Below, one piece after another: positions 10,600 through 40,775 of a stretch of DNA of 64,000 nt. The position numbers were made by a program, and so were the translations under genes. The notes under the pieces were generated by a model. It was not told the origin of the DNA. It ran no database searches and saw only the letters and a program-made list of their open reading frames with translations. How positions within the stretch are numbered: position 1 is the first letter of the stretch; each line of letters starts with the position of its first letter. The DNA comes from a phage. The DNA lies in NCBI GenBank assembly GCA_014816185.1, contig GCA_014816185.1_4095.1. One strand, written 5' to 3'.

Positions 10600-10624
10600 C
10601 ATAATTTAGTATGTTATATATAAT
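10596..10624 (+). promoter_or_regulatory. sigma70-like promoter
   Basis: TTGACA - 17 nt - TATAAT upstream of the 10659 gene. Confidence 0.5.
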
Positions 10625-10658
10625 TATTTTGTTAAAAACAAATTAGAGTAAGGAACTT

Positions 10659-10910: not shown

Positions 10911-10984
10911 AAGTATTTGAGATAACAAATAATATGGAGTACAATGTGCTCCTAATTTAATTATCAGCTAAAAAGGAAAACATT

Positions 10985-13807: not shown

Positions 13808-14017
13808 ATGAATTCAGTAATCTTTTTAGTAATAGCTTTTTCTGTTAATTCCGGTGTACAAATAACCCCAATGAATTCCATGAATCAATGCATTGCATTA
13901 CGTGATAGTACATACGAACAAGTAAACAAAGATATTTGGATTACAGTTAGTAAAGAACAAATGTGGTGTTACAATAGTAATACTAAAGAGAAACTTATTG
14001 TGGGTCAAACTAAATGA
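13808..14017 (+). CDS. small protein with hydrophobic N-terminus
   Basis: AAGGAA SD. Confidence 0.55.
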   Translation: MNSVIFLVIAFSVNSGVQITPMNSMNQCIALRDSTYEQVNKDIWITVSKEQMWCYNSNTKEKLIVGQTK

Positions 14018-15049: not shown

Positions 15050-15232
15050 ATGCAAATTATCATTCTTATCGTTGGCATCATGCTGGGTGTTTACGGTCAC
15101 TCCTGGATGAACGAGAAGTTTCCTAATACGCGTCCTGAGTATTGCAGTTCTGATGTATTCCAGAATGGTGAGAAACCAAAGGAAAGCATTGGTAAAAAGC
15201 TGGATAAAGTACTTGATGTGATCAATGAATAA
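15050..15232 (+). CDS. small membrane protein
   Basis: SD GAGGAA; hydrophobic N-terminus. Confidence 0.5.
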   Translation: MQIIILIVGIMLGVYGHSWMNEKFPNTRPEYCSSDVFQNGEKPKESIGKKLDKVLDVINE

Positions 15233-15612: not shown

Positions 15613-15891
15613 ATGTCTTTTTCTAAAGAAGAACGTGACCTTATTAAAAAAGCAATTTGGTTTTATGCTAATGAAGGGAAGTGCGATGAAGAAAAAGCAC
15701 GTGAACTGTGTAATATCCTTGAGAAGAAACAAGAACTGAAAGTGTATCGTATCCGTGATTTGGATGAAGGGGATCGTATTGTCCTAGCTGAAACAAAAGA
15801 AGAAGCAGAACAAATCTTCACTGATAAAAACGAAAATCCACATTGGATGGAAGAAGTCTGTGATGTTAAAAAAGGTACTTATATCGATTGA
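15613..15891 (+). CDS. hypothetical protein
   Basis: Start moved to ATG with AGGAAA SD. Confidence 0.55.
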   Translation: MSFSKEERDLIKKAIWFYANEGKCDEEKARELCNILEKKQELKVYRIRDLDEGDRIVLAETKEEAEQIFTDKNENPHWMEEVCDVKKGTYID

Positions 15892-16010
15892 CAGTACTGA
15901 ATAATAGCAGTATTATGTTTTATATAAAAGGGAATGCAGTGAAAGGAAAGACAGCATAATCGTACTCGTCACTGCGTTCCCGCCCTTTTAAATTAAATGA
16001 GGAATTAACT

Positions 16011-16319
16011 ATGTTTCAAACTAACACTCAAGGTTTTGTAATCATCGATTTGAATCAAAACAGCGGTCATTGGATGAAACCTACTGACGCATGTATGCAG
16101 TTTGATTTCTTAGGTTACAAAATTAGTGTAAGTACTGGTGCTTCTGTACTGAGAGGTGGTTGTATCGTTGAACATCTGGTAACTGATCCAGAAGGTCGTG
16201 AGTATGAAATCGCAGGTTCAGTACAAGATGCCATTATGTTTGTATGTCAGCGTGAAATGAATGGTTCGAATTCAAATGCACTGACTCATGCTCTTTCTCA
16301 AGAAGTGGAGGTTCGTTAA
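16011..16319 (+). CDS. hypothetical protein
   Basis: SD GAGGAA. Confidence 0.6.
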   Translation: MFQTNTQGFVIIDLNQNSGHWMKPTDACMQFDFLGYKISVSTGASVLRGGCIVEHLVTDPEGREYEIAGSVQDAIMFVCQREMNGSNSNALTHALSQEVEVR

Positions 16320-16564
16320 TGAAATACATTTTAGCAGTACTCGTCGCATTTCTACTCACTGCATGTGATGCTTCTACCAAAGAACGTACAAGTGATTTTG
16401 TTCTACCTGCTGAATTAAAAGAAGCAGGGTGTAAGATTTATCGTATGCAACAAGATGGTGCTGGTGCGACTTTATACACTGTGTACTGTCCTAATGCAAA
16501 TACAAGTACTGGATACACTAGCGGTAAAACACGAATCAACACTTCCGTAATTCATGGAGAATAA
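16319..16564 (+). CDS. putative lipoprotein
   Basis: Signal peptide with lipobox LTAC (MKYILAVLVAFLLTAC). Confidence 0.6.
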   Translation: MKYILAVLVAFLLTACDASTKERTSDFVLPAELKEAGCKIYRMQQDGAGATLYTVYCPNANTSTGYTSGKTRINTSVIHGE

Positions 16565-16566
16565 CA

Positions 16567-16935
16567 ATGAGCCTTGATACAACACGTGCAGCAGATTTAT
16601 TAACTCGTCTGAATGATGAAGAATATCTTGCTGAGATAAAGTACAAGCTTGACAAACTTGTTCGAAGTGCTGAAGTAATTGAAGTTGAAGGTCACTTACC
16701 GATGGATCAATACCATAGGTTCAAGGAAGATATGGTTTATTATCCTAATGAAATTTGGATTGAGTGGCAACATTGGACTAACAAAACTCTTCGCATTGAA
16801 GGGTATTGTGTGAAGTATGAAAGTTCACCTGGTGATGTTACAAAAACTCTATCAATTTGGTGTACAAAAACAAATGAACTCGTTGAGGTGAATTTGAATT
16901 ATATGAATGGATTCCGTTGGGGTGATGTTAAATGA
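16567..16935 (+). CDS. hypothetical protein
   Basis: SD GGAGA. Confidence 0.6.
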   Translation: MSLDTTRAADLLTRLNDEEYLAEIKYKLDKLVRSAEVIEVEGHLPMDQYHRFKEDMVYYPNEIWIEWQHWTNKTLRIEGYCVKYESSPGDVTKTLSIWCTKTNELVEVNLNYMNGFRWGDVK

Positions 16936-17207
16936 TTAAAAAACTCTTGACTGGAATCATTGTGTGCAGTACAATGTTTCTTACAGCATGTAATGATGAC
17001 GGCAGGTTTAGTGCAAAAGACTTAGTTCGTCAGGATTGTACATTCACAGGTAAGTCTTTTATTAACGAGTATGAAATATGTACACAATCAGGTCGTATCT
17101 GTGGTGGTTGGGAAAAACGTCAGGAGCGATTGTATGTATATGAATGCCCTGGACATCACAACAAAGTACTAAGCACACACAAACTTGTTTATGATAAGGT
17201 TGAATAA
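16932..17207 (+). CDS. putative lipoprotein
   Basis: ATGA overlap; signal peptide with lipobox LTAC. Confidence 0.6.
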   Translation: MIKKLLTGIIVCSTMFLTACNDDGRFSAKDLVRQDCTFTGKSFINEYEICTQSGRICGGWEKRQERLYVYECPGHHNKVLSTHKLVYDKVE

Positions 17208-17422
17208 TGACTACCAATGAAATGATGCAGGTTATTTGGGATAAAGGTTGTGATATTAAAATCACTAGTACTGATGTTCGTGTATTCAAAACTGAATATA
17301 TGGAGTACTTGGATCTTGATACTTATAATAATATTGTATCAATCGAACACAAAGGTGCAGTACTGGAAACGATTGATGTAGTACTCAAGAAAGCTACCGA
17401 CCTATTAGGAGTGGCAGTGTGA
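17207..17422 (+). CDS. hypothetical protein
   Basis: TAATG overlap. Confidence 0.55.
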   Translation: MTTNEMMQVIWDKGCDIKITSTDVRVFKTEYMEYLDLDTYNNIVSIEHKGAVLETIDVVLKKATDLLGVAV

Positions 17423-17565
17423 ATAACAAAGAGTGGGAAGATTACCGCAAGAAGTGCCGAGAGTTTGATAAAGAACTCACAGGTGCAGTGAACGGGGTAA
17501 TGTGGGTATCTGCAATTATTGCAGTACTTGGTTTGGGTGCTATTATTATTAATAAATTATTGTAA
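17419..17565 (+). CDS. 48-aa protein with C-terminal TM segment
   Basis: GTG start overlapping upstream stop, AGGAG SD; below ORF-track cutoff. Confidence 0.35.
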   Translation: MNNKEWEDYRKKCREFDKELTGAVNGVMWVSAIIAVLGLGAIIINKLL

Positions 17566-17573
17566 GGACTAAT

Positions 17574-17774
17574 ATGTTTACTTTATATCTTGCAGTAGTA
17601 CTAACTAATGGTGAAATCACTCGCACCGTTGGTGAAGGTGTATATAAAACACCTGATCAGTGTTACTCTGCAACTCATTGGCCTCGTGATGCTGGTGATG
17701 AATCTCGCACTGAATACAAATGTATGAAGGTTAAAGGTGACTTTGTAAATCTAAAGGTTATTGAGACTAAGTAA
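17574..17774 (+). CDS. hypothetical protein
   Basis: SD AAGGA. Confidence 0.55.
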   Translation: MFTLYLAVVLTNGEITRTVGEGVYKTPDQCYSATHWPRDAGDESRTEYKCMKVKGDFVNLKVIETK

Positions 17775-18292
17775 TGGATATTAATGAGTTGTTGAAATTA
17801 GTGTTTAATCGTGAACGCCGCGATACAAGACCAATTGAATATCAAGATGTGATATGCATTGAAACTGATTTCTGTTATGGTAAAACAACTCATGACCTTT
17901 TGAATCTCTCTGGAAAACGCTATGCTGATGTTTGTTTTTCAGAGAGAAGTGATGGTTCAGAAATAACGAGTACTGATATTGTTTGTTACGCACGCAGTGC
18001 TGATAAATCTTATGAAATAGAACTTATATATTCCCCTAGTTCTAAAACAAATCATCACCGCCATATTTTATATGATGTTTACACACCACCTGGTATTGCT
18101 GAATATTTTGTTATTGATTATAGTACTGAAGAAAATGTGTTTCAACAAAGTTTGATTCATAACTTTGAGGTTAATGATCCATTAGTGCCAAAGTTATTCA
18201 AACTACTTGACACCATCGATGTTGATTTTGAATTTGTTATGTGTATTAGAACTTCTTTATTCAATGAATTCATGGAACTTTTTAATATATGA
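17774..18292 (+). CDS. hypothetical protein
   Basis: TAATG overlap. Confidence 0.6.
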   Translation: MDINELLKLVFNRERRDTRPIEYQDVICIETDFCYGKTTHDLLNLSGKRYADVCFSERSDGSEITSTDIVCYARSADKSYEIELIYSPSSKTNHHRHILYDVYTPPGIAEYFVIDYSTEENVFQQSLIHNFEVNDPLVPKLFKLLDTIDVDFEFVMCIRTSLFNEFMELFNI

Positions 18293-18510
18293 ATAGATAC
18301 TATGTTGTGTATGAACACGTCTCTGAATTTAATAACATACGAGGTTATTCCAGAGTTGTCACAAAGATGGATGTATTCATTCGTGCTCTTAGTGAAGTGG
18401 ATGCACTGTTTAAATTGTTTGATGAAATTACAAAGTATAACACACCCAAAACACACCGCTATGTGGAAACTGTACATAGCATTATGCTAACTGAAAGTGA
18501 TGAGGAATGA
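18289..18510 (+). CDS. hypothetical protein
   Basis: ATGA overlap. Confidence 0.55.
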   Translation: MNRYYVVYEHVSEFNNIRGYSRVVTKMDVFIRALSEVDALFKLFDEITKYNTPKTHRYVETVHSIMLTESDEE

Positions 18511-18513
18511 TAA

Positions 18514-18732
18514 ATGAATTTATATCTAGTTGAAGGTTTAGTACAAGTCTATAAACCAGAAGGTGAAGGTCAACGTTTTTCACACGTAGAAGAATTTAAG
18601 TACGTTGTACAGGCTGATGGTCAGTACGATGCGGAAATTCAAGTAGATGAATCATTCCGTAAGAAAAATGAAATTGGTAAATTTCAATACCAGAACTTAC
18701 AATATAAAGTATGGCCTAGTATAAATGACTAA
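18514..18732 (+). CDS. hypothetical protein
   Basis: SD GAGGAA. Confidence 0.55.
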   Translation: MNLYLVEGLVQVYKPEGEGQRFSHVEEFKYVVQADGQYDAEIQVDESFRKKNEIGKFQYQNLQYKVWPSIND

Positions 18733-18940
18733 GATGTGGTGGTGTCATGGTGTATATAACGTGTATGTAAATGGTAGATATAAAATGTCTAGTACCTATG
18801 CAAGACGTGTTAATGCGAACAACCAAGTTGATGCTGCTTGTGAGATCATTGAGTGGTATGCTGAGTTCAATGCACCTGACTATATGTACGAAATAGTTAC
18901 AATAAATGTTGTACAAATCGATACATCTTTGATACAATAA
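18725..18940 (+). CDS. hypothetical protein
   Basis: Short overlap with upstream gene. Confidence 0.45.
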   Translation: MTKMWWCHGVYNVYVNGRYKMSSTYARRVNANNQVDAACEIIEWYAEFNAPDYMYEIVTINVVQIDTSLIQ

Positions 18941-18972
18941 CCACATCAAAAAAATTGCATCTGAGGATACTT

Positions 18973-19635
18973 ATGTTAGTTAATCTTAATTTCATCACTT
19001 CACCTGACTGGGCATTACGTGGAGTTTCTTTAAACTTCAAGGAAACTATGTTTGACTACATTGGTGAGTGTACATTGGTAAATGCAACTTTTGATCCAAA
19101 TCATCCGTTTTGGGCTGAAATTCATGATCCAAATGTAAACAACAATACATCTGTTATGACTATTGTCCAGACTAAACATGCAGGTATCCTTGCAGGTTAT
19201 CGACCTGCACATGCAATTGAACACTTCACTGATTACGATGTCGTGGATGAATACCCAATGATCCATGAAGATGGAAGTCTATACACATCTGAAGACTTCC
19301 GTGCTATCTTTAATAGTACTGATGATATTCTACCAAGTGGACGTCCACGTCCTGAGTCTTATCTTATGCATCCATCTTATGGTGTAGCAGATACGCTTGA
19401 ACAGATTATGAATAAGTACAAGAACCTAATTGAAGGTCCAGAAGAAATTGTCCTGTGCTATCACCCAGTACTGAAGTCTGAACAACCAAAGGATGGTGGA
19501 TGGCGTTGGCATAAGAATGGTGAGTATATCGGTACTAAACGAAGTAAAGAACGTTTTGAGTACTTGTATGATGAGCCAGATGTTGATGTGGTTTTGTGTT
19601 ATAATTTTATTAAGGTGAAAAAGAAATGTATCTAG
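18973..19635 (+). CDS. hypothetical protein
   Basis: Start moved to ATG after GAGGA SD. Confidence 0.55.
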   Translation: MLVNLNFITSPDWALRGVSLNFKETMFDYIGECTLVNATFDPNHPFWAEIHDPNVNNNTSVMTIVQTKHAGILAGYRPAHAIEHFTDYDVVDEYPMIHEDGSLYTSEDFRAIFNSTDDILPSGRPRPESYLMHPSYGVADTLEQIMNKYKNLIEGPEEIVLCYHPVLKSEQPKDGGWRWHKNGEYIGTKRSKERFEYLYDEPDVDVVLCYNFIKVKKKCI

Positions 19636-19868
19636 TACTAAGTTTTGTTGTTGCACTATTGTTTATGTTCTATCCTACACTAGTGGCATTAGCCACTAGA
19701 CGAACGATGGTAGATCTCACTACTGTATTCTTGCTAAACGTGGCATTAGTACTGGTTTCTATTATCATTCCAGTGAGCTTTACAGTTATTGATATTATTT
19801 CGGTATTACTCTTCGTGTTAAGTTATCTTATGCTTATTGAAGAAACAAATGTTGACAAACGTTCGTAG
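19626..19868 (+). CDS. membrane protein
   Basis: Two hydrophobic segments; SD AAGGTG. Confidence 0.5.
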   Translation: MYLVLSFVVALLFMFYPTLVALATRRTMVDLTTVFLLNVALVLVSIIIPVSFTVIDIISVLLFVLSYLMLIEETNVDKRS

Positions 19869-19926
19869 TACTATATAATGGTTCCTGTAGTCTGAAACTT
19901 AACACTTAAACTTGAGGTAAAAAAAT

Positions 19927-20253
19927 ATGCTATCAGTACTAATTTCAATTCCGTCTTTAATTCTGATTTGGCTTCTGGTTTACGAATGCTTCATTACTGA
20001 TGATAATGATAAAAAAGAGTTCTCTGAGTTGTTTATGCTTGATTCACCGATTGTGCGTATTTTCTATGCAGTCGTTGTGGTTTCAGTAATTGTATGGGTT
20101 TTGAGTTTTATCTTCCCACTCGGTGCAGTAGTTAAAACTTTGGATTTAGTTGAGAACTTTGTTGCAATTATGTGGCTAATCAAAGCACTATTTGCAGGAA
20201 ATGTTAAAATTTGGATTGATATTATCAAATTCAAGTTCACGAATAAGATGTAA
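19927..20253 (+). CDS. membrane protein
   Basis: SD GAGGTAA; hydrophobic. Confidence 0.55.
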   Translation: MLSVLISIPSLILIWLLVYECFITDDNDKKEFSELFMLDSPIVRIFYAVVVVSVIVWVLSFIFPLGAVVKTLDLVENFVAIMWLIKALFAGNVKIWIDIIKFKFTNKM

Positions 20254-20331
20254 CAGTGAAAATATCTCTATAGTATTAAATACTTCTGTACATATATATA
20301 GTACAGAAGTATTTCTCGTTAGAGGTTTGTT

Positions 20332-20691
20332 ATGAAGAGTTATATAAAATTAATAGCACTTGTGTGTGCATTATTTTCATGTTTTAGTTATGGTGCAGCA
20401 GCAGAAACATATTGTCGTAGTACTAAGGGAACGTGGCATGTATTGACTAACGACCCTAGAAATGGTAAAAATATAGTTGTTGATGGTGTGATTTATCGTT
20501 TTAAAGTAGAAAGTATTATCGGTAATAAAAAAATCTCGACTTATAGAGATGATTCTGGTACATTAGCAAACGTAATATTAATTGTAGACCCAAGAACTGG
20601 TAATGGTGATATCTATATAGTAATTTACTTGGACTCATCGGTACGCCGTGACCTAGATATAGATAAATTGAACTTACACTGTGAAATATAG
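20332..20691 (+). CDS. secreted protein, paralog of 21083 ORF
   Basis: Signal peptide; conserved Cys near both ends; IVVDGVIYRF aligns with IVYIDGQSYTF. Confidence 0.6.
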   Translation: MKSYIKLIALVCALFSCFSYGAAAETYCRSTKGTWHVLTNDPRNGKNIVVDGVIYRFKVESIIGNKKISTYRDDSGTLANVILIVDPRTGNGDIYIVIYLDSSVRRDLDIDKLNLHCEI

Positions 20692-20702
20692 GACTTAAAA
20701 AA

Positions 20703-21080
20703 ATGGTAAACACTATTTTACTTTTGTTGTTGAATATTCCAATTATTCTGTCTTTTTTAATTTCTATTTTTATGGCAGGATATTGTTTAGTTGCAGTAAT
20801 TCATTTCATTTTAACAAACAAATATGTCCTAATTTCTAAGCTTGATTCTATTTTTGCTTGCGATTCGATTGCTTATAACTTGTGGTTAATTTGTTCTTGC
20901 ATTATGGGAGTAACTTTCCTTCTGTATGTATTTGATGTCCTTGACCAAAAGTTCGTATACATCAGTACTGGATTGGCTCTTTATCCTGCTACGTGGTACT
21001 TGATTTACGTTGGTGATATATGGTATAGTACTTATAAAGAATATCAGTACAAGAAATCACTTAACATTGGAGGAAAATAA
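20703..21080 (+). CDS. membrane protein
   Basis: Multiple hydrophobic segments. Confidence 0.5.
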   Translation: MVNTILLLLLNIPIILSFLISIFMAGYCLVAVIHFILTNKYVLISKLDSIFACDSIAYNLWLICSCIMGVTFLLYVFDVLDQKFVYISTGLALYPATWYLIYVGDIWYSTYKEYQYKKSLNIGGK

Positions 21081-21082
21081 TC

Positions 21083-21433
21083 ATGAAAATTATTTTATTT
21101 TTTGTATGTATGTTAATGTGTGGATTGTCATATGCTGAACCATTGGAAGGTTTAGTTTGTACAGATGGTAATATTAAACATATCTATCAAGGTGATAGTG
21201 ACGATCGAGATATTGTATATATTGATGGACAATCATATACGTTTGTTAAAGAGCATACAGTAGGCGACATTAGCTTCACTGAGTTTTCTAACGACACAGA
21301 CCCTAACTTCTTAGCGTTTATTGAAGTAGATGTATATGAAGATAGTAATGGCACACAATATGCTAAATTAGTTATGATGCGTCGTGGTGCTAAAGAAACT
21401 AGTTTTGGTGGCTTGTGTAAATATAAGGATTGA
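21083..21433 (+). CDS. secreted protein, paralog of 20332 ORF
   Basis: SD GGAGGAA; signal peptide MKIILFFVCMLMCGLSYA. Confidence 0.6.
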   Translation: MKIILFFVCMLMCGLSYAEPLEGLVCTDGNIKHIYQGDSDDRDIVYIDGQSYTFVKEHTVGDISFTEFSNDTDPNFLAFIEVDVYEDSNGTQYAKLVMMRRGAKETSFGGLCKYKD

Positions 21434-21437
21434 TATT

Positions 21438-21629
21438 ATGTTGATTTATCAAAGTGATAATATTCGTGTTATGCAGCATCCCTACTTACAAATCTTTGAT
21501 GTGCAGCAGTATATGGAAGGTGATGACCCAAGAACCTATGGTCGTAAGTATGATTACTTCACTGTAAAGCAGTGTAAAAATATTAACGAAGTACGACAAT
21601 TAGTTCAAGAACTTCAAAACAAAGGTTGA
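21438..21629 (+). CDS. hypothetical small protein
   Basis: Start moved to ATG after AAGGA; stop codon sits inside the terminator hairpin. Confidence 0.45.
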   Translation: MLIYQSDNIRVMQHPYLQIFDVQQYMEGDDPRTYGRKYDYFTVKQCKNINEVRQLVQELQNKG

Positions 21630-21647
21630 CTTCGGTCAGCCTTTTTT
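21624..21647 (+). terminator. UUCG-tetraloop terminator with embedded -35
   Basis: GGTTGAC-TTCG-GTCAGCC plus T-run; TTGACT in the stem lies 18 nt upstream of TATAAT (21650-21655). Confidence 0.65.
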
Positions 21648-21683
21648 GTTATAATTCTCTTAATAAATTAGAGGATTTTAATT

Positions 21684-22124
21684 ATGTATGTATATCGTTT
21701 TGAACTTAAATTTAGTTACATTGAACCTAACTTAGATCCTGCACGAACTGTAGGTCCGTTTGCACGGTATTCAACCAGATACAGTACTAAAAATGGATTT
21801 GACCGTTTGCTTATGACTACACCTTCTCAATTCCAACCTGAACCAACTGAGGATGGGATCTATTCAATCAAAAGTGGATGGGTATTTGGCTGTCAAAGTT
21901 TGAAAGATTTGTTCAGATTCTTCACTATGGACTTGGGTAAATTGCATCGTGCTGGGTTTGCTATATCTGTATATGAAGTTCCAGACCACCATGTAGACAT
22001 TGGTCGTAATCAGGTTCAGTACTATTGCGGTAGTGCTAAATTAGTTCGTATCATGTCAGTTAAGGAAGCAAAGGATGAGTTCCGACAAAGTAAAAGAGAA
22101 ACACATGAGGTAATATATGGATAA
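21684..22124 (+). CDS. hypothetical protein
   Basis: SD AGAGGA. Confidence 0.6.
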   Translation: MYVYRFELKFSYIEPNLDPARTVGPFARYSTRYSTKNGFDRLLMTTPSQFQPEPTEDGIYSIKSGWVFGCQSLKDLFRFFTMDLGKLHRAGFAISVYEVPDHHVDIGRNQVQYYCGSAKLVRIMSVKEAKDEFRQSKRETHEVIYG

Positions 22125-22461
22125 AACTCAAATAGAATTAAAGAAATTTGTTTCATTCTATTTTCCTGATGACCCACGTAATTCACAAAAAGATATTGAA
22201 TATTATAATATCCTATCTAAACAGTTAATGAGAAAGTTTCAACAGTGTTTAACTATATTCAATACAGATGGAAGACGTAGATACCGAATCGTTTCAATGA
22301 ATGATGAAAACGCAAATTTCTTTGATTACGATGTAGTTTTTAGAGCATATAATGATGATCGTATAAAATTAAATTATGATCAAATTATACTTGACCTGAA
22401 TGTTATATGTGTTATAATCACTCACGTAGCCGAACTTAATGGTTTTAAAGAATGGTATTGA
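22117..22461 (+). CDS. hypothetical protein
   Basis: Overlaps upstream gene end. Confidence 0.55.
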   Translation: MDKTQIELKKFVSFYFPDDPRNSQKDIEYYNILSKQLMRKFQQCLTIFNTDGRRRYRIVSMNDENANFFDYDVVFRAYNDDRIKLNYDQIILDLNVICVIITHVAELNGFKEWY

Positions 22462-22475
22462 ATAGAGGATAACAT

Positions 22476-22742
22476 ATGAAGCTTAAATTACAATATAATG
22501 GATTTACTTTACGTAATGATACTGAATTTATTAATCGTTCTCCTGGTGCTGAACTGTTTTTACGAGAGATGAACATTCCTTTCATCATTACTACAGTGGG
22601 CGACCGTGAAGTTCTACAATATGCAGAGCATCCGATTATTGATGTTCCTTGGTACTCTGAGCATATGTACATGGATATGGCACGTCGCTACAACTGTAAG
22701 TTCGTAGTTGAAGGTGATAAAATTACAGTCGAATTTAAATAA
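22476..22742 (+). CDS. hypothetical protein
   Basis: SD AGAGGA. Confidence 0.55.
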   Translation: MKLKLQYNGFTLRNDTEFINRSPGAELFLREMNIPFIITTVGDREVLQYAEHPIIDVPWYSEHMYMDMARRYNCKFVVEGDKITVEFK

Positions 22743-22754
22743 GGTAAATTAAAA

Positions 22755-23048
22755 ATGATCAGTACTTCAGTTAATGAAAGCATCGTCGCTGACGTAGAAA
22801 TGGTTAAAGAATGTGCAGATGAAACTCTTCGTGATATGTACATTAATGATTTAATTACTGAATACGGTAGTCGTGGTGTACACGAATTTATTCGTTTAAG
22901 TGGAGAGTTGATGAAAAATCGAATTCGTATGAAGCTTAACGTACATCCAAAAGCATGGGCATTTACATTAAAATACGCAGAAGATATTGTGAATTTGCGT
23001 CGAACTGAAGTATATGAACGTTTGCACAATGGTATGTTAGATAAATGA
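22755..23048 (+). CDS. hypothetical protein
   Basis: SD AAGG. Confidence 0.55.
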   Translation: MISTSVNESIVADVEMVKECADETLRDMYINDLITEYGSRGVHEFIRLSGELMKNRIRMKLNVHPKAWAFTLKYAEDIVNLRRTEVYERLHNGMLDK

Positions 23049-23056
23049 TTGTAAAA

Positions 23057-23088
23057 AAGGAATTCTTAAATGAATTCCTTTTTGTTTA
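23057..23088 (+). terminator. rho-independent terminator
   Basis: AAGGAATTC-TTAAAT-GAATTCCTT plus TTTTGTTT. Confidence 0.55.
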
Positions 23089-23100
23089 TAAGGTATAGTA

Positions 23101-23322
23101 ATGAAATATATAGTACTTGTACTGATATTATTCAGTACTGTTGTAAGTGCTAAACAAAAAGAATATGTTAAATGTATAAATTATGAAGAGAAATATGTTG
23201 AAACATATAAAAAAAGTATAATTAAAAACGTTTCGATTACTAACAGAGCAACAATCATTGTACTTAAAAATGGGTTAATTATGCTATATAAACCACACGT
23301 TAAATGTGAAATTATTAATTGA
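23101..23322 (+). CDS. small secreted protein
   Basis: Signal peptide MKYIVLVLILFSTVVSA. Confidence 0.55.
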   Translation: MKYIVLVLILFSTVVSAKQKEYVKCINYEEKYVETYKKSIIKNVSITNRATIIVLKNGLIMLYKPHVKCEIIN

Positions 23323-23329
23323 GGAAATT

Positions 23330-23902
23330 ATGAATCGTAAAGGTCGTTTTAAAGTATCAAAAAAGAACAAAAGTTCTAGGTTTAAACCTATTGTTTTAAC
23401 AGTTAAATCTAACAAAGAATTAACTGCACTTAGTAAAAAGATAATTTCATCTAAGATTGAAGTATCATACGTAAATTCATTAAAATATATGAATGTCAAA
23501 CCACTGGACCAACTCATTTCACTTATATTTGAACGTAATGATTTTGAGATATCAGTAGATGATTATAGAGCCTATAATGCTGGTTTCATTAATGTTACTT
23601 GTAATAAAAAACTAACTGAGTTGGAAAATTTGTCATGTATAATAAATCTAGATAAAGGTGTTGTGAAGTACCATTTTGTACATTTCACTAATATCAATAA
23701 TGGAATGGGTGTACAATCCAGACCTATAGTGCCTACGTGTGATGTTACTAAATTAGCAAAGCTCAATGATGAAGAATATTTTCAAGAAAGCATTGTAACT
23801 GAGCATTTAGATGATATAATAGCTACTTACAAAGAATGCATATGGGTGTTGAATGCTATAAAACCTAAATTGTGTTTAATGAATATTGTTCGTGATTTAT
23901 GA
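23330..23902 (+). CDS. hypothetical protein
   Basis: Start moved to ATG after GAGGAA (MNRKGRFK). Confidence 0.55.
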   Translation: MNRKGRFKVSKKNKSSRFKPIVLTVKSNKELTALSKKIISSKIEVSYVNSLKYMNVKPLDQLISLIFERNDFEISVDDYRAYNAGFINVTCNKKLTELENLSCIINLDKGVVKYHFVHFTNINNGMGVQSRPIVPTCDVTKLAKLNDEEYFQESIVTEHLDDIIATYKECIWVLNAIKPKLCLMNIVRDL

Positions 23903-23915
23903 ATGGGGAATCGTA

Positions 23916-24359
23916 ATGAGTTGGGTAAATGTTAATAGTATTGAACTTAACGAACAAGATATTTTTGCATTTGTAAATTTAACTAATAACACAGTACTAA
24001 AAGGGCGTTTGTTCAGTGCTAGTGATGGGTACAAATGGATCTCTTTGATGGATGATAGTGGTGTGATTTATAATGTAATGCAATTACCCCAATGGGTATA
24101 TAGTAACACTGCTGACGATGTTCTTACCGCAGTTATGCGTGAGTTTGAAAAACTCCCAGGTGGTGATATCAAAAACAAAGTTTTTAATGCAGAACGTAAA
24201 AATTATACAGCACAGCAGTTGGAATCCCTTGCCATTGCTGCTTATCAAGCTGCTATTAAGAAGCCAGAGTGCGTTATTCTTAAGTATGTACCAGACTTAA
24301 AACTTACGTTGGAAGACATGGATGCATTCATTTTTACATCTGAACTTGATCAGTACTAA
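23916..24359 (+). CDS. hypothetical protein
   Basis: Start moved to internal ATG (MSWVNV). Confidence 0.5.
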   Translation: MSWVNVNSIELNEQDIFAFVNLTNNTVLKGRLFSASDGYKWISLMDDSGVIYNVMQLPQWVYSNTADDVLTAVMREFEKLPGGDIKNKVFNAERKNYTAQQLESLAIAAYQAAIKKPECVILKYVPDLKLTLEDMDAFIFTSELDQY

Positions 24360-24474
24360 TTTAACTTTGGGACAACCATTCTTATTATGATATAATGTTT
24401 TATGTCATTCGATATAAATGACAACGGAACTATAAATATTATAGTAAAATTTATCTCTTATAGGAGTTATAAAA

Positions 24475-24858
24475 ATGGTTGATAAATGGAATAAGAAAGA
24501 TCCATCACATGATGTTGATATTTCTGGTCTAGACAATGCACATAAGCACAAGTATCTAGATTCACTAGGTCTTCTAAAACCAGACCAAAGTCTTGCACAT
24601 GATCGTCCATCCCGTGAAAAAGCATTTAGCCTAGAATCACTAGGTCATGAGCTTAATCGTGTGTTTGAGGATCACCCAATCTATGTACGTGATATTATCG
24701 AGAAACTTAAAGTAACTCCTAAAGAGCACTTTAAAGCAACTGTACACTCTGCATTCCGTGCATTACATGAATCTCTAAAGAAAACTCACAATCTTCGTAA
24801 AATTCATGATGAAATCGTGAATGCAATCGAAAGTGAAAAACATAAGTTCAAGAAGTAA
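24475..24858 (+). CDS. hypothetical protein
   Basis: SD AGGAG. Confidence 0.6.
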   Translation: MVDKWNKKDPSHDVDISGLDNAHKHKYLDSLGLLKPDQSLAHDRPSREKAFSLESLGHELNRVFEDHPIYVRDIIEKLKVTPKEHFKATVHSAFRALHESLKKTHNLRKIHDEIVNAIESEKHKFKK

Positions 24859-24864
24859 TAAAAA

Positions 24865-24890
24865 GGGGTTGACTAAGGTCAGCCCTTTGT
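24865..24890 (+). terminator. terminator, variant of the TTGACT hairpin family
   Basis: GGGGTTGAC-TAAG-GTCAGCCC then TTTGTTG. Confidence 0.55.
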
Positions 24891-24927
24891 TGTATCATAA
24901 ATTCTCAATATAACTGAGGTATCATAT

Positions 24928-25041
24928 ATGCAAGGTTTGAAATTTGTAGTTGCTGCACTCATCGCCGCAGTACTGGTTGGTGGTGTATTCTATGTAGTGG
25001 ATCAAAAAGTAAATCCACCTGCACAAGAACAATCTAAGTAA
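24928..25041 (+). CDS. 37-aa single-TM micro-protein
   Basis: GAGG SD; sits alone between two terminators; MQGLKFVVAALIAAVLVGGVFYVV... Confidence 0.35.
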   Translation: MQGLKFVVAALIAAVLVGGVFYVVDQKVNPPAQEQSK

Positions 25042-25048
25042 CAAAATA

Positions 25049-25076
25049 AGGTTGACTTCGGTCAGCCTTTTCTTTA
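25049..25076 (+). terminator. UUCG-tetraloop terminator
   Basis: GGTTGAC-TTCG-GTCAGCC plus T-run. Confidence 0.6.
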
Positions 25077-25103
25077 TACTATAAATATAGACATAGAGAA
25101 AAA

Positions 25104-26381
25104 ATGAAATCTATGGAGAGAAATCAAATGCCAAGTAATTTTACTGATAAAAATGGTGGTAACATGGCTGGTCACTCTGATAAATGGAGTGAACGCAACC
25201 GCCGTCCAAATAGTTATCAAGCAGGTCAAGGTTCACGTGGATCACGTAACCAAGGAACTGGTCTAGCTGGTAAAGCAAACGCAGAAGCAGGTGAAGTTAA
25301 GAGTACTGAGAACATGACTGAGCTAGAAAAGCTACGTTATGTTAATTCATTGGGACTTCTTAATGCTACACAAAAACAACGCCTAGCTGATATGGAACGT
25401 GAAGAAAAAGAAAAATCTGCTCCTGCTAAAGAAGAACCAAAACAAGAAGCACCAAAGGCGGTTAACCCTGTCAAAGAACTGTCGGATAAGTTAGGTAAGA
25501 TTTTTGCTAATAAACCACAACTTATCCAAGGTATTGTGAAAGAATTGCAATCTGTACCTAAAGAAGAATTAAAAGTCAAAGCACAAGCTGTGCTTGATGC
25601 AATGAGTGGAAATACCAGTACTGAACCAACTGAAGTATTCAGTACTATAATGCGTGCACTTGAAGGTACGCAACAAGGTGATGTGCCTGCACAAGAGGAA
25701 GTAAGTCTTGAAAGCGTACTTAAAACATTTGATAGTATTGGTAAAGAAGACCGTGCTAATGCTCAAAAAGTTAAGAATGTACTAGCTAAGTTAGAAAACC
25801 GTCTGGAAGGTAAAGACGATAAGATTAAATTAGTATCTGATGCAGTTAACGATGCACTTAAATCTTATGTACAAGGTGAAAAGAGTCGTTTTGTAACTGC
25901 AATGGATGCTGCATTCAATACTATGAAAAAGTATGAAGCTGATCATGGTGAGAAGGTTACACGAGATGGTTATCTGATGCGTGATGATGAAGAAGGTGCA
26001 GTAGAACAGAACGATGTTCATTCAGACGAAGAAATTGATGACATGGAAGCTGAACTGTCACAAGACCGCCAAATGACTGAAAAATCCCATAACGAACTAC
26101 AGAAATTAATGCAATGGGTTGCAGATGTTGGTGAAAAAGCTGGTGCTGATAAGAAGAGTATAAACCGAAATCTTAGTTGGATTAAAGATAAAGTTGGTAA
26201 CAACGCTCGTAAACTACAAAAAGCGTGGACTGATGTAGTGAATGGTGCTGTTGATATTGATGTTGAATCCGGTGAGGCATATGATTATGCATTGACTACA
26301 CTTGATGACTCTTTCCGTGATTACGAAAATGGAAATGTAACTCCTTGGGAAAAGGACATCATGAGCAAATACGGTAAATGA
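25104..26381 (+). CDS. hypothetical acidic protein (425 aa)
   Basis: Long ORF, highly charged, coiled-coil-like. Confidence 0.6.
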   Translation: MKSMERNQMPSNFTDKNGGNMAGHSDKWSERNRRPNSYQAGQGSRGSRNQGTGLAGKANAEAGEVKSTENMTELEKLRYVNSLGLLNATQKQRLADMEREEKEKSAPAKEEPKQEAPKAVNPVKELSDKLGKIFANKPQLIQGIVKELQSVPKEELKVKAQAVLDAMSGNTSTEPTEVFSTIMRALEGTQQGDVPAQEEVSLESVLKTFDSIGKEDRANAQKVKNVLAKLENRLEGKDDKIKLVSDAVNDALKSYVQGEKSRFVTAMDAAFNTMKKYEADHGEKVTRDGYLMRDDEEGAVEQNDVHSDEEIDDMEAELSQDRQMTEKSHNELQKLMQWVADVGEKAGADKKSINRNLSWIKDKVGNNARKLQKAWTDVVNGAVDIDVESGEAYDYALTTLDDSFRDYENGNVTPWEKDIMSKYGK

Positions 26382-26388
26382 TAAAACA

Positions 26389-26417
26389 AAAGGTTGACTT
26401 CGGTCAGCCTTTTTTTG
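26389..26417 (+). terminator. UUCG-tetraloop terminator
   Basis: AAAGGTTGAC-TTCG-GTCAGCCTTT plus TTTTT. Confidence 0.65.
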
Positions 26418-26452
26418 TAAATACAAAAGAGGAATTAAGAAGAGGGATTACA

Positions 26453-26704
26453 ATGAAAAAATATATTATATTTGGAATTGTATTATTTTCCAGTACTGCT
26501 TATGGTGCAGATTATCATTGCTCCGTAGCAAGGCAGGATTTCAGAAATGGGGAGTTCTATACTACCTCATACACAAAAGGAATAATACACGACACCGACA
26601 GAACTATTGGATTTAATGCGTTTGACAACAAAGATTCATATACTTCAGGTATACTATCTGAGCGTAAGACTGATGTAATGGGAATAGAAAAAGAGTTCCG
26701 GTGA
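26453..26704 (+). CDS. small secreted protein
   Basis: Start moved to ATG after AGAGGG; signal peptide MKKYIIFGIVLFSSTAYG. Confidence 0.5.
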   Translation: MKKYIIFGIVLFSSTAYGADYHCSVARQDFRNGEFYTTSYTKGIIHDTDRTIGFNAFDNKDSYTSGILSERKTDVMGIEKEFR

Positions 26705-26714
26705 TTCAGTAGCA

Positions 26715-27038
26715 ATGTGCAATGGCATTGAAAGTACTAAAACAATTTATTATAATAATGAACGTAACTATCGTTTTCATAATTTAACCACAAATAAAAG
26801 TTTACTATTTTACAATTGTAAAGAAGTAATACTCCCATCAGACAATAGCTGTACTCCAACTAATCAACCCCCAGCACAATGTAATACTCCCTCTGAACCT
26901 GATAAAAATAAAAAAGACAAAGATAAAGATAAAAAAGAAGACAAAAAACCTTTAAAAGATAAAAAGAAAGATAAAAAACCTAATCCGTTTAAAAATAATA
27001 AACAAGCACAACCCGATATGACGTGTAAAATAAAATAA
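26715..27038 (+). CDS. Lys/Asp-rich low-complexity protein
   Basis: ORF with KKDKDKDKKEDKK tract; weak SD. Confidence 0.35.
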   Translation: MCNGIESTKTIYYNNERNYRFHNLTTNKSLLFYNCKEVILPSDNSCTPTNQPPAQCNTPSEPDKNKKDKDKDKKEDKKPLKDKKKDKKPNPFKNNKQAQPDMTCKIK

Positions 27039-27047
27039 GGATATATA

Positions 27048-27467
27048 ATGAAAAAGATTTTTTTAAGTATTATTTTAGTACTTTTTAGTTTTAATGTATA
27101 TGCAGCAGATGCTAAACAGGTTGCAAATACAGTAAAAGATGTTATAGTAGATAATGCTCCTACATTAGAGGAAATTGGGGTAAAAACTTGTGATATAGTA
27201 ATATATAATTTAGTTAATGATGAACGAGTTATGTTGAATACGTATGAACAAGTAGTCCCATTGGTTGAATCTGGTGATGCTTTTAGATTTACATATAAAG
27301 TTAAATTAACAGGAGGGGTTGAAGTTAATCTTGACATTGATACCGCTTCAGTACTAAAAGATAAACTAGGATATGTGTTCAATCGTATTCGTGAAGAAGG
27401 TCATCTTAAGTATGTTTATGAAAGTAAAATACTAAAACGTGCAATAGTTATAGAAAACTGTAAATGA
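27048..27467 (+). CDS. secreted protein
   Basis: SD AAGGA; signal peptide MKKIFLSIILVLFSFNVYA. Confidence 0.6.
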   Translation: MKKIFLSIILVLFSFNVYAADAKQVANTVKDVIVDNAPTLEEIGVKTCDIVIYNLVNDERVMLNTYEQVVPLVESGDAFRFTYKVKLTGGVEVNLDIDTASVLKDKLGYVFNRIREEGHLKYVYESKILKRAIVIENCK

Positions 27468-27475
27468 TAATAAAA

Positions 27476-27501
27476 GGGTTGACTTCGGTCAGCCTTTTTT
27501 G
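27476..27501 (+). terminator. UUCG-tetraloop terminator with embedded -35
   Basis: GGGTTGAC-TTCG-GTCAGCC plus T-run; TATGAT 18 nt after TTGACT. Confidence 0.65.
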
Positions 27502-27536
27502 TTATGATGTTGGTATTAACTACAGAGGATAAAGTA

Positions 27537-28178
27537 ATGACTAAGCAAGACATATTCAAAACTTTAATTGACATTTTGCGTCCATCAAAAACTCGTTGTG
27601 CGATGGAGTTTGATATTCCTTATGCTGAACGCGTAATCTTTCCACAAGTTAAAGCTGCTGGACTTACTTTTCTTGGAATGGGGATGTACTCTGTAGTAGT
27701 TGAACATAAAAACTATCCTGGACGTGCATTTAAAGTAACCACTTCACGCTGGGATGGTTTTCGTGCTTATGCAAAGTACTGCATTGAAAACGCAGGAACC
27801 AAGTTTCTTCCAGTGATCTACAGTGCCAACGAACAAGGAAACTTTGGATGGTATGAGATGGACAAGTACTATCCTATAATTAAACAAAAAAATAATTATG
27901 ATGACTTTGTTAGTACTAAAATTGGAGATTTATATTCTTATGCACATGCTGGTCAGTACGCTACTTCAGTGAATGATATGCGTGGTAATTCTGAAGAGAT
28001 TGCTATTGCGACGGTCGCTGCTAACATCATGAAAGAGTTTCACGGGCGTTTTGTACCAGACATTCATTCAAGTAATGTAATGATGGATAAAGATGGGAAT
28101 GTATTCATTACTGATCCTCTTTCGTGTGATGTGCGTAGAGAAATACCAATTACTGAAGAAGATCCAGTTTTTTATTGA
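27537..28178 (+). CDS. hypothetical protein
   Basis: Track start at 27504 lies inside the -10; moved to ATG after GAGGAT. Confidence 0.6.
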   Translation: MTKQDIFKTLIDILRPSKTRCAMEFDIPYAERVIFPQVKAAGLTFLGMGMYSVVVEHKNYPGRAFKVTTSRWDGFRAYAKYCIENAGTKFLPVIYSANEQGNFGWYEMDKYYPIIKQKNNYDDFVSTKIGDLYSYAHAGQYATSVNDMRGNSEEIAIATVAANIMKEFHGRFVPDIHSSNVMMDKDGNVFITDPLSCDVRREIPITEEDPVFY

Positions 28179-28523: not shown

Positions 28524-28862
28524 ATGGAACAATATTTTGAATTAATAAACAAAGTATCATTTTATGTAGTATCTTTGGTTTGGGTGTATTATATGTTTTG
28601 CTATATTATTGCATTCTTCCGATATACTACTTTATATGAACGTATCTACTATGATGCCCCAATTTCATTCTTGATGTTTTGTGCATGTACGTGGGGAATA
28701 TTAGAAGTACTGATATGTGGGTATAGTACTGATGAATTAAATCTGGTATCGGTGTTGACTGGGTTTTCATTTGTTGTTATGATAGCTGCCGTTCCAGTAT
28801 GGTTGTTCTTTGGACTAGTTCATCGCATTGATATATGGCGTTCTAATATCCCTGAAAAGTAA
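28524..28862 (+). CDS. small 3-TM membrane protein, family M
   Basis: About 112 aa, three hydrophobic segments, basic C-terminus RSNIPEK. Confidence 0.6.
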   Translation: MEQYFELINKVSFYVVSLVWVYYMFCYIIAFFRYTTLYERIYYDAPISFLMFCACTWGILEVLICGYSTDELNLVSVLTGFSFVVMIAAVPVWLFFGLVHRIDIWRSNIPEK

Positions 28863-28871
28863 GGATTGGTA

Positions 28872-29213
28872 ATGATTTATTACACTAACATGTTTGCCTA
28901 TGCTGTTGCTTGCATTTACATTGTGTACTTCTTATTCGGTGGAGTACTGTGCTTCTTTAAGTACAAAACGTTGTTCAACCGAATGTACCCAAATCATCCA
29001 ATTGTAGTTGTACTTTTGATTCTTTCAGTTTCTCAAATAATCGTTGAAACTACAATGGGTATCAGTAGTGTACATTATAGTTTTGGCACTATAGTAATTA
29101 TTACTATGCTTATTGCATACATTTTAGTACTTGGATATGGTATCTTTGGTAATATTGGTATGAAAATGTATCATCGAATTAAAACATTACGTGATAATCT
29201 ACCGGAGCGTTGA
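28872..29213 (+). CDS. small 3-TM membrane protein, family M
   Basis: ATG after AAGGA; C-terminus RDNLPER. Confidence 0.55.
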   Translation: MIYYTNMFAYAVACIYIVYFLFGGVLCFFKYKTLFNRMYPNHPIVVVLLILSVSQIIVETTMGISSVHYSFGTIVIITMLIAYILVLGYGIFGNIGMKMYHRIKTLRDNLPER

Positions 29214-29214
29214 T

Positions 29215-29559
29215 ATGTATAATTTGAACCTAATCTCATATATTATAACAACACTGTTTACATTCTATGCCTTTGTTGGTATAATCCTACTGTACTTTAA
29301 ATTTTATAAAGTGTTTAACCGTTTCTATCCTTCAATGGAGAATGAGTTTTTCTTTGTGTTGTACGTAGGTTACACATTAATGGCTACATGTTTCACTGTA
29401 GCCGATGGTGTCATCGGCATTAAAACTGATTCCCCAAATGGTAGTACGCTGGTTGCATTTATTCTTACTGGATTCCTTGCAACTTATATTGCCTTCATTA
29501 CAACATGGTCAGTGGTTGAATTTCTCTTGCGACTACGAAAGAATATGCCGAATCGATAG
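29215..29559 (+). CDS. small 3-TM membrane protein, family M
   Basis: ATG after GGAG; C-terminus RKNMPNR. Confidence 0.55.
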   Translation: MYNLNLISYIITTLFTFYAFVGIILLYFKFYKVFNRFYPSMENEFFFVLYVGYTLMATCFTVADGVIGIKTDSPNGSTLVAFILTGFLATYIAFITTWSVVEFLLRLRKNMPNR

Positions 29560-40697: not shown

Positions 40698-40775
40698 AAT
40701 TCCTCCTTTATTCATTATACTATATTTAATACAAATAAGAAAGCCAGTACAAAGTACTGGCATAGTTTTATAGTA

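Follow-up and report, generated by a model that had tools for sequence, protein, structure and literature searches.

Predicted envelope-exported proteins cluster in an Asteriusvirus jumbo coliphage and include a candidate pair of lysozyme-inhibitor-like beta-barrels

The DNA considered here, hereafter the window, is a stretch of 64,000 nucleotides from a phage contig (GCA_014816185.1_4095.1, assembly GCA_014816185.1), and a region of about 11 kb within it, from 16319 to 27467, raises a question: What are seven small proteins with apparent export signals doing in the same short part of a jumbo phage genome? These proteins, which we name after the first base of their genes, are p16319, p16932, p20332, p21083, p23101, p26453, and p27048. 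The window belongs to an Asteriusvirus jumbo coliphage of the 121Q/PBECO4 group, since its bases 16000-28000 align over their full length with Escherichia phage JP4 at 99.3% identity, and with phAPEC6, SP27, 121Q, and PBECO4 at 96.9-99.1%. Asteriusvirus phages are jumbo myoviruses of about 350 kb; the GC content of the window is about 33%, and nearly all genes from its 1 to 39 kb lie on the + strand. The region corresponds to genes 175-204 of 121Q, and in the JP4 and 121Q records every gene between 16.3 and 27.5 kb is listed as 'hypothetical protein', except for two 'virion structural proteins' (24475-24858 and 25104-26381). A first-pass annotation of the window had proposed that the seven proteins are exported and might exclude superinfecting phages by blocking receptors or DNA entry. 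The part of this proposal that concerns envelope export stands, given the sequence anatomy of the proteins and its conservation, while the part that concerns a block of receptors or of DNA entry is not supported, given that no exclusion family is matched, that no receptor-binding genes lie nearby, and that the family of p16319 extends across phage genera and hosts. The best explanation for the region is a hot-spot of non-structural accessory genes with products predicted to be exported to the envelope, rather than one system.

All seven open reading frames (ORFs) lie on the + strand, begin where they had been placed, and are preceded by a Shine-Dalgarno-like motif. The start of p26453 is an internal ATG of the ORF 26378-26704, and it is the credible one because a terminator-like hairpin (26390-26413) occupies the upstream part of this ORF and the motif AGAGGG precedes 26453. 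Two proteins, p16319 and p16932, have the lipobox LTAC, as the first-pass annotation had read; in the other five, the n-region includes Lys and is followed by an h-region of about 8-15 residues that are hydrophobic and uncharged, with small residues at -3/-1 (cleavage contexts in table 1). We scanned the window with a rule-based heuristic of our own, which requires that the n-region be positive, that the hydrophobic core span at least 8 residues and be free of charges, that either small -3/-1 residues or a lipobox be present, and that no transmembrane (TM) segment follow. Among the 134 gene calls of the window, the strict scan flagged all seven proteins and one more (8316-8777), that is 7 of 28 genes inside the region against 1 of 106 outside (Fisher p = 6e-5, with post hoc boundaries). 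Because these boundaries were those chosen in the first-pass annotation, the scan was repeated on a whole genome, that of EC22.5-2, a 352-kb record which was taken without annotation and is 97% identical to the window in this region. Here 18 of 591 gene calls were flagged, including the known o-spanin, a positive control with its sequence taken from the spanin survey, and some that resemble membrane anchors rather than cleavable signal peptides. The best window of 28 genes has seven flagged calls and is the homologous region (gene-order permutation p = 0.00085, 20,000 trials). The clustering of predicted exported proteins is real, since the whole-genome scan puts 7 of the 18 flagged calls in this region: about 40% of the predicted exported proteins of the phage lie in about 3% of its genome.

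The same anatomy is kept in orthologs, which we took from six other Asteriusvirus records (JP4, 121Q, fEgEco12, vB_Ec-M-J, JNE01, and A4), adding EJP2 for the two lipoproteins. Identity between signal peptides falls to 13-17% in p20332 and p27048, yet the K/R residues, the hydrophobic core, and the cleavage context or lipobox are always present, and the maximum 8-residue hydropathy is at least 2.6 throughout. The Cys residues of the mature domains are all retained as well, except in the most distant homolog of p16932, which keeps 3 of 5; the conserved mature Cys counts are even in six of the seven proteins (2, 4, 2, 2, 2, 2), as would be expected of periplasmic DsbA substrates. Hence, all seven proteins very probably go to the host cell envelope, and p20332, p21083, p23101, p26453, and p27048 are best explained as periplasmic proteins secreted by the Sec/SPase-I route and stapled by disulfides. 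What these results show is the anatomy, its conservation, and the clustering; export is inferred, as are the expression timing, sub-envelope locations, targets, and phenotypes considered below. One could object that the signals are artefacts, namely uncleaved anchors or chance hydrophobic stretches, with clustering as a by-product of an AT-rich region full of small ORFs; our predictor is indeed home-made and also flags obvious membrane anchors elsewhere in the genome. This explanation is hardly credible, for the n/h/c anatomy persists in orthologs at 13-50% signal-peptide identity together with even numbers of conserved mature Cys in most proteins, the lipid Cys is invariant in 82 members of the p16319 family, the o-spanin was recovered, and the permuted gene orders gave the low p value reported above.

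Could the seven proteins derive from a single expanded family? This was rejected, because after removal of the signal peptides only p20332 and p21083 are related to each other among the seven and two further candidates at 13808 and 17574. The cluster thus comprises at least six unrelated families. The two lipoproteins p16319 and p16932 have a 'YxCP' string in common, but no profile similarity, and were not joined in one family. Searches of Pfam, NCBIfam, PADLOC, and the PDB with the seven proteins and their neighbours gave nothing above threshold, and the matches below threshold are driven by the signal peptide, for instance that to the TrbK entry-exclusion lipoprotein (15.8 vs 23 bits). Six of the seven proteins fall in PHROGs families of unknown function. 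Their families are new among the exported accessory proteins of phages, of which Llp, Cor, Spackle, Imm, and RI are the known kind. They are not discussed in the papers we found on this phage group; those on phAPEC6 and fEgEco12 mention neither lipoproteins, signal peptides, nor exclusion.

The related pair is the most informative. The alignments of p20332 and p21083 orthologs match each other over their full length with an hhalign probability of 94.6% (E = 7e-8), and still with 81% over 51 columns (E = 1.2e-5) when signal peptides are removed; moreover, p20332 matches the PHROG of p21083 at E = 0.0025, and in a joint alignment of 20 sequences from both groups the two Cys are invariant and in register. 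The two proteins are therefore paralogs with conserved Cys pairs, as had been noticed at first sight. A profile search with both ortholog sets retrieved 19 proteins, all in this phage group. The AF2 model of p21083, built from the 20-sequence alignment, has a pLDDT of 78 (80-90 over most of the mature domain) and a pTM of 0.66, and consists of eight beta-strands, the first of which (24-28) bears Cys26 and the last (106-114) Cys112. From this moderately confident model, the mature domain of p21083, and by paralogy that of p20332, is predicted to form an eight-stranded beta-barrel like that of MliC/PliC proteins (Pfam MliC; PDB 3oe3, 4mir, 2f09), Neisseria ACP (6gq4), and Brucella PhiA (7dpy). 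These proteins and p21083 are alike in predicted periplasmic location, in size (about 95-100 mature residues, for a fold of about 85-100), and in having eight antiparallel strands with Cys in the first and the last. The disulfide between beta1 and beta8 is kept in MliC, PliC, and ACP (PMC5507604). They differ in that sequence identity is 3-7% and that p21083 comes from a virulent phage, MliC and PliC from bacteria.

Other eight-stranded barrels are interleaved among the structural matches of the p21083 model, including erythrocruorin linkers, pallilysin, a type VI secretion system (T6SS) immunity protein, Cap15, staphostatin, and avidins, while a search of BFVD with the same model returned uncharacterised phage proteins only. 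The MliC/PliC-like fold is a common binding scaffold, which imposes caution on function. One may consider that the proteins protect the infected cell against periplasmic toxins of non-phage origin, such as T6SS muramidase or amidase effectors or bacteriocins. We regard such immunity as very improbable, given that the similarity is only that of a generic fold and that no effector gene lies nearby; nor do we know of virulent phages that carry toxin-immunity genes of this kind. In both paralog groups, the loops that join beta2-3, beta4-5, and beta6-7 have an invariant or near-invariant residue (D38, G61, and G90, respectively). If the barrel is up-and-down, all three loops may share the end where MliC has its inhibitory loop 4, a weak indication deduced from topology, and conserved turn glycines can be structural alone.

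What could such barrels do? The precedent to which they may be compared is Spackle (gp61.3) of phage T4, an exported, disulfide-bonded protein which inhibits the gp5 tail lysozyme of incoming phages and thereby produces superinfection exclusion (PMC7677548). Spackle is an early product with a cleaved signal peptide, one disulfide, and a periplasmic location, and may serve as a functional model for p20332 and p21083, even if it is an alpha-helical bundle with allosteric action, without sequence or fold relation to a pair that is predicted to be all-beta. Asteriusvirus encodes a GH24 T4-type lysozyme, annotated in 121Q as baseplate hub/tail lysozyme (PMC12805682), so that a plausible target for the barrels exists. 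We propose the following mechanism: the exported proteins, made from sigma-70-type promoters, would reach the envelope of the infected Escherichia coli cell, where a peptidoglycan hydrolase of the periplasm would be bound and inhibited by the barrels of p20332 and p21083, each with a disulfide that ties strand 1 to strand 8; this hydrolase would most likely be the GH24 lysozyme of this phage group and of its competitors. Inhibition of a muramidase in the periplasm, by which other phages are excluded or lysis from without is averted, would be the single most likely function for the pair, albeit one that we still place on the doubtful side.

The same lysozyme invites another explanation, namely that the small secreted proteins are periplasmic antiholin-like or endolysin-regulating factors and that the barrels restrain the phage's own GH24 lysozyme until lysis. 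In T4, RI acts in lysis inhibition, and small secreted phage proteins with a periplasmic domain, in a phage which combines a GH24 lysozyme with a lysozyme-inhibitor fold, would suit such a role. In T4 and N4, superinfection is known to bring about lysis inhibition (10.1101/2025.11.12.688109). The spanins of 121Q are genes 511/512 at 245.3-246.0 kb (PMC6139136 supplement), about 150 kb away, and thus the seven genes do not belong to a lysis cassette; there is also no similarity to RI or to any holin/antiholin family in Pfam and PHROGs, and no holin was identified nearby. Control of lysis timing is accordingly a distinctly unlikely function. None of the seven is a spanin itself, as no i-spanin is adjacent and the gene between the two lipoprotein genes has no TM segment; the lipoproteins resemble Rz1-type o-spanins, which are outer-membrane proteins, in being small phage lipoproteins, but are not proline-rich.

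The second informative protein is p16319, which belongs to a large family (phrog_902, profile match at E = 1.4e-13). Its N-terminus reads MKYILAVLVAFLLTAC, followed by D. By tblastn it was found in 582 phage records, including Felixounavirus/Mooglevirus, Certrevirus, CR9-like, and Erwinia jumbo phages, as well as many Vibrio phages and Acinetobacter phages, and a profile search among 1.84 billion cluster representatives gave 286 proteins at E <= 0.001 (50% identity clusters), nearly all of 75-125 residues. The family also occurs in rV5-like phages. Of its 150 best representatives, 132 have a lipobox-like motif. Invariance in the 82-sequence alignment of the family is limited to three columns, all Cys and one of them the lipid Cys, within the consensus C..T...T..Y.LPxELxDCKIY....L.VVRCPNSxTxT..GK (signature variant LPxELxDCK(I/V)Y). 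Its named members are all phage proteins called 'hypothetical' or 'lipoprotein'. In Pfam the family profile matches only the generic lipid-attachment site, in the PDB it matches no chain at E <= 10, and no structural neighbour was found for p16319. In other phages the homologs lie among early or DNA-metabolism genes, and no conserved neighbour genes were found around them.

In E. coli, a lipoprotein with Asp at +2 is retained in the inner membrane, a rule reportedly established by Yamaguchi in 1988, Seydel in 1999, and Terada in 2001. Since Asp occupies +2 in p16319 and in all its Asteriusvirus orthologs, the prediction for p16319 is that it remains in the inner membrane, on its periplasmic face. 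Across the family this residue is variable (D 36, S 24, E 20, and T 16 of 132, with Asn in Mooglevirus Sf13), hence the membrane in which these lipoproteins reside may vary with the host. Phages of different genera and hosts use different receptors; as the family is common to such phages, it is unlikely that p16319 plugs one receptor, and a conserved envelope target would be more likely. This distribution, with homologs placed among early and DNA-metabolism genes, suggests a conserved host target and thereby also favours another view of the cluster: an envelope takeover for the phage's own cycle, in which enzymes or machines of the host periplasm (lytic transglycosylases, proteases, nucleases, Lol/Bam/Lpt, transporters) are inhibited or redirected, or host defences located in the envelope are countered, keeping the cell intact and productive through the long latent period of a jumbo phage. 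The same + strand block has many small multi-pass membrane proteins, and an MliC-like barrel could equally inhibit a host muramidase. The five secreted families, however, are limited to this phage group and diverge fast, which fits an arms race with competitors at least as well; we see an envelope takeover as possible, though less likely than its absence.

A more specific version of exclusion, the one implied by the first-pass annotation, is that the two lipoproteins are outer-membrane plugs of the phage's own receptor, acting from the periplasmic side like Llp of T5 or Cor of T1, phi80, and N15. Llp and Cor are lytic-conversion lipoproteins that block FhuA, and FhuA-Llp complexes are available in the PDB. 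As with p16319 and p16932, they are small phage lipoproteins of about 60 mature residues with a disulfide, made in the infected cell. Labels of this kind already exist for the orthologs: EcMJ_513 of vB_Ec-M-J, ortholog of p16319, is annotated 'Cor superinfection exclusion protein', and g526, g528, and g556 of fEgEco12, orthologs of p16319, p16932, and p26453, are annotated 'lytic conversion lipoprotein'. BLASTP of p16319 with T1 Cor aligned residues 2-24 only, i.e. the signal peptide and lipobox, while with T5 Llp it gave no alignment. The 82-sequence family alignment matched T1 Cor by hhalign over 20 columns, all in the signal peptide and lipobox, and T5 Llp over 34 columns, mostly signal peptide, with 14 residues beyond the lipid Cys and a probability of 77%; this extension (PKDIKCEAYYMQD against LPxELxDCKIYxM) is too weak to claim a relationship. 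T1-like or lambdoid phages were seen neither in the organism summary nor among the matches listed for p16319 (582 records, of which 522 lie outside that list). We therefore rejected the 'Cor' and 'Llp' labels of the p16319, p16932, and p26453 orthologs, because similarity is confined to the signal peptide or barely exceeds it.

Other features set the proteins apart. The Cys of Llp and Cor are near the N- and C-termini, whereas the two Cys of p16319 flank a central hairpin; Llp and Cor have Ser at +2, p16319 the Asp which points to the inner membrane; and p26453 has no lipobox, unlike the Llp and Cor lipoproteins. In T5, llp abuts oad (pb5), and in T1 cor is in the tail-gene region beside ST31-ST33 (PMC11990801), whereas the neighbours here are small hypothetical genes with no receptor-binding gene adjacent. 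With no PDB match for the family profile and a family spread across genera and hosts, lytic conversion of the Llp/Cor type is quite improbable, in spite of the small size and disulfides of both lipoproteins, the labels in other records, and the 14 residues matched in Llp.

When and where would the seven proteins act? The tightly packed block 16011-19868, which holds both lipoprotein genes, follows a putative sigma-70-like promoter, and another precedes the unit 19927-21629 with p20332 and p21083 (table 1). Further along, the boundaries are marked by a 24-nt hairpin element, AAGGTTGACTTCGGTCAGCCTTTT, of which the window contains seven + strand copies against 0 expected. The hairpin is terminator-like, its stem includes a -35-like TTGACT, and a TATAAT-like hexamer follows most of the copies checked; as this hexamer comes after the embedded TTGACT, a copy may serve both as the end of one transcription unit and as the start of the following one. 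The copy at 21622 closes the 19927-21629 unit, with TTGACT and then TATAAT; that at 26390 separates the virion-protein gene 25104-26381 from the unit of p26453, and together with the copy at 27475 it brackets 26453-27467, so that p26453, p26715, and p27048 would form one unit. The stretch of the hairpin matches a feature annotated as 'redundant repeat' in Pectobacterium phage CBB. These signals suggest that the exported-protein genes are transcribed by host RNA polymerase. In the virion proteome of phAPEC6, the proteins gp035c and gp037c are listed from this region, but not gp032c, gp034c, gp040c, and gp047c, which correspond to p27048, p26453, p23101, and p21083. For p16319, p16932, and p20332 the proteomics could not have detected a product, because the annotation of phAPEC6 (MK817115, 25863-37862) omits their genes despite 99% identical DNA. 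The promoters, together with the absence from the virion proteome of the proteins that could be checked, fit an action in the infected cell.

Taken together, we tentatively propose that the cluster protects or remodels the envelope of the infected cell so that a second attack is withstood, a role of superinfection exclusion in its broad sense, and give this somewhat less than an even chance. Its most explicit form would have p20332 and p21083 as the first phage muramidase inhibitors of MliC/PliC fold, an independent beta-barrel counterpart of Spackle that blocks the incoming GH24 tail lysozyme or lysis from without, with the p16319 family acting, at the periplasmic face of a membrane, on an envelope machine that is conserved; in this full form the proposal is rather unlikely. 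Several points weigh against protection from a second attack, and against inhibition by the barrels in particular. Models of Llp, Cor, Imm, Spackle, SieA-type, and PADLOC proteins match none of the seven; the genes are not next to receptor-binding genes; and four of the seven proteins (p16932, p23101, p26453, and p27048) give no functional clue. Sigma-70-like promoters also precede the two virion-protein genes of the region and, because these have the same signals, early timing is not fixed by promoters. The seven exported proteins have a median identity of 69% with fEgEco12, soluble neighbours 88%; this trend towards faster divergence speaks for the role, but three comparisons gave no significance (p = 0.057, 0.07, and 0.35). 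As to the barrels, the p21083 model is built on 20 related sequences only. What defines MliC/PliC proper is a pair of motifs, SxSGAxY in loop 4 and YxxxTKG in strand 6, while ACP inhibits lysozyme without them (PMC5507604); both are absent from the 20-sequence alignment of p20332 and p21083, Pfam MliC gives nothing at E <= 1 with the 20 family members, and their profile has no match among PDB sequences. For this lack of motifs and matches we do not file p20332 and p21083 as members of MliC/PliC, and propose that they may work like them. PhiA, of the same fold, showed no inhibition in vitro (PMC8334348).

The remaining members of the cluster can be described more briefly. The lipoprotein p16932, with MIKKLLTGIIVCSTMFLTAC as N-terminus followed by N, conserves its lipobox in orthologs and was found only in Asteriusvirus-related jumbo phages of Escherichia, Salmonella, and Klebsiella, with 96-100% identity of the mature domain between lineages, the distant EJP2 homolog excepted; given its Asn at +2, it is predicted to reach the outer membrane by default. 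The mature domains of p23101, p26453, and p27048 diverge fast between lineages (41-75% identity). That of p23101 has 56 residues with a conserved pair of N-terminal and C-terminal Cys, and 41-49% identity between lineages; p27048 is restricted to Asteriusvirus, with 40% identity between lineages, and appears as two clusters in 5.8 billion proteins. The gene of p26715 lies in the +1 frame 11 nt after the stop of p26453, and the two products together would have six Cys; moreover, p20332, p23101, and p27048 have a C-terminal Cys strand to which 'FYNCKEV' in p26715 is similar. The junction of the two genes, TTCCGGTGA, is invariant in four genomes with variable flanks; this conservation and an overlap window of 17-23 nt are suggestive of a programmed +1 frameshift, but there is no recognised slippery site. 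In this sequence setting, p26715 may be a split or +1-frameshifted continuation of p26453.

Table 1. Positions of the genes and signals in the region and of the hairpin copies in the window (slash, predicted cleavage)
Feature	Position	Strand	Description
Promoter	15888..15916	+	Putative; sigma-70-like TTGACA-17-TATTAT, 11/12 consensus, in intergenic gap
p16319	16319..16564	+	81-aa lipoprotein precursor; lipobox LTAC, Cys16, Asp at +2; phrog_902
p16932	16932..17207	+	91-aa lipoprotein precursor; lipobox LTAC, Cys20, Asn at +2, four further Cys
Promoter	19852..19879	+	Putative; sigma-70 TTGACA-16-TATAAT, 12/12 consensus, in intergenic gap, ahead of unit 19927-21629
Gene at 19927	19927..20253	+	108-aa multi-pass membrane protein (context gene); first gene of the unit of p20332 and p21083
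p20332	20332..20691	+	119 aa, predicted secreted; cleavable signal peptide ~1-24, YGAAA/E (or SYG/AA); Cys pair near both ends of the mature domain
Gene at 20703	20703..21080	+	125-aa membrane protein (context gene), ~3 TM segments; between paralogs p20332 and p21083
p21083	21083..21433	+	116 aa, predicted secreted; signal peptide ~1-18, SYA/EP
p23101	23101..23322	+	73 aa, predicted secreted; signal peptide ~1-17, VSA/KQ
Virion protein	24475-24858		Ortholog of phAPEC6 gp037c, detected by mass spectrometry
Virion protein	25104-26381		Ortholog of phAPEC6 gp035c, detected by mass spectrometry
p26453	26453..26704	+	83 aa, predicted secreted; signal peptide ~1-18, AYG/AD; single mature Cys
p26715	26715..27038	+	107 aa, no signal peptide; five conserved Cys, Lys/Asp-rich tail
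p27048	27048..27467	+	139 aa, predicted secreted; signal peptide ~1-19, VYA/AD; conserved Cys pair, Cys48 and penultimate Cys
Hairpin copies	21622-21645, 25048-25071, 26390-26413, 27475-27498 (1 mismatch), 31970-31993, 33252-33275, 34666-34689	+	24-nt element

Beyond these genes, the whole + strand block is rich in small envelope-targeted proteins. The additional protein flagged in the window, 8316-8777, probably starts at 8322 and has a clear signal peptide (VHA/EE). With N-termini that are short, hydrophobic, and uncharged, and with two conserved Cys, the candidates at 13808-14017 and 17574-17774 are possible exported or anchored proteins, while that at 15050-15232 has an N-terminal membrane anchor. 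Arrays of membrane proteins with three TM segments (about 113 aa each) occur at 28524-29559 and at 35566-38346. The proteins at 28524, 28866, and 29191 are clear paralogs (hhalign probability 100%) and weakly related (55-71%) to that at 35566, the first of about eight similar-looking genes at 35.5-38.3 kb; in this run only 37975 was compared besides 35566, and it gave no match. We considered also a tandem duplication of a unit of membrane protein plus barrel as the origin of the arrangement around p20332 and p21083, which is unsupported, the membrane proteins at 19927 and 20703 having no detectable relation. On the - strand, 39528-52476 is a tandem array of about 11 paralogous genes for proteins of about 245-430 aa, most of which start with MLPF(A/G/V)RM(V/M/I)(K/N)YGNI; a relative in EJP2 is annotated as 'RCC1 repeat domain protein'.

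The two virion proteins inside the region have motifs in common when compared by eye (YLDSLGLLKPDQ with YVNSLGLLNATQ, and IIEKLKVTPKEHFK with IVKELQSVPKEELK), and for this reason may be paralogs; the larger of the two varies between 417 and 606 aa depending on the phage, and its name of 'chromosome segregation protein' in phAPEC6 is a mislabel. In fEgEco12 and vB_Ec-M-J, extra small genes are inserted directly after the p23101 ortholog and before the gene of the large virion protein (8500-8736 and 10525-11081 of the extracted segments). The region acts like a hot-spot where small membrane or envelope genes are inserted. Two of the genes inserted in vB_Ec-M-J are annotated as 'immunity to superinfection'; one of them scores 15.7 bits with Pfam Imm_superinfect, for a cut-off of 27.9, and the other has no Imm match. 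We set these labels aside as a clue for the region, for the extra genes are absent from the window and the support is weak.

What the cluster may mean for the biology of these phages follows from the position that jumbo phages now occupy as candidates for therapy, with more than 80% of their genes lacking an assigned function. Of the phage's proteins, the predicted exported ones are the likeliest to govern the response of an infected cell to a second phage, a point of importance for the design of phage cocktails. For specialists, the points to retain are the presence of an MliC/PliC-like barrel, as modelled, in a virulent phage, and the size and breadth of the p16319 family: it is large and without a Pfam model, and assignment of its target would annotate hundreds of phage genes at once. 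If the barrels of p20332 and p21083 do inhibit phage-type lysozymes, exclusion of the Spackle kind would have been reached twice with unrelated folds, and the pair would represent new inhibitors of GH24 enzymes.

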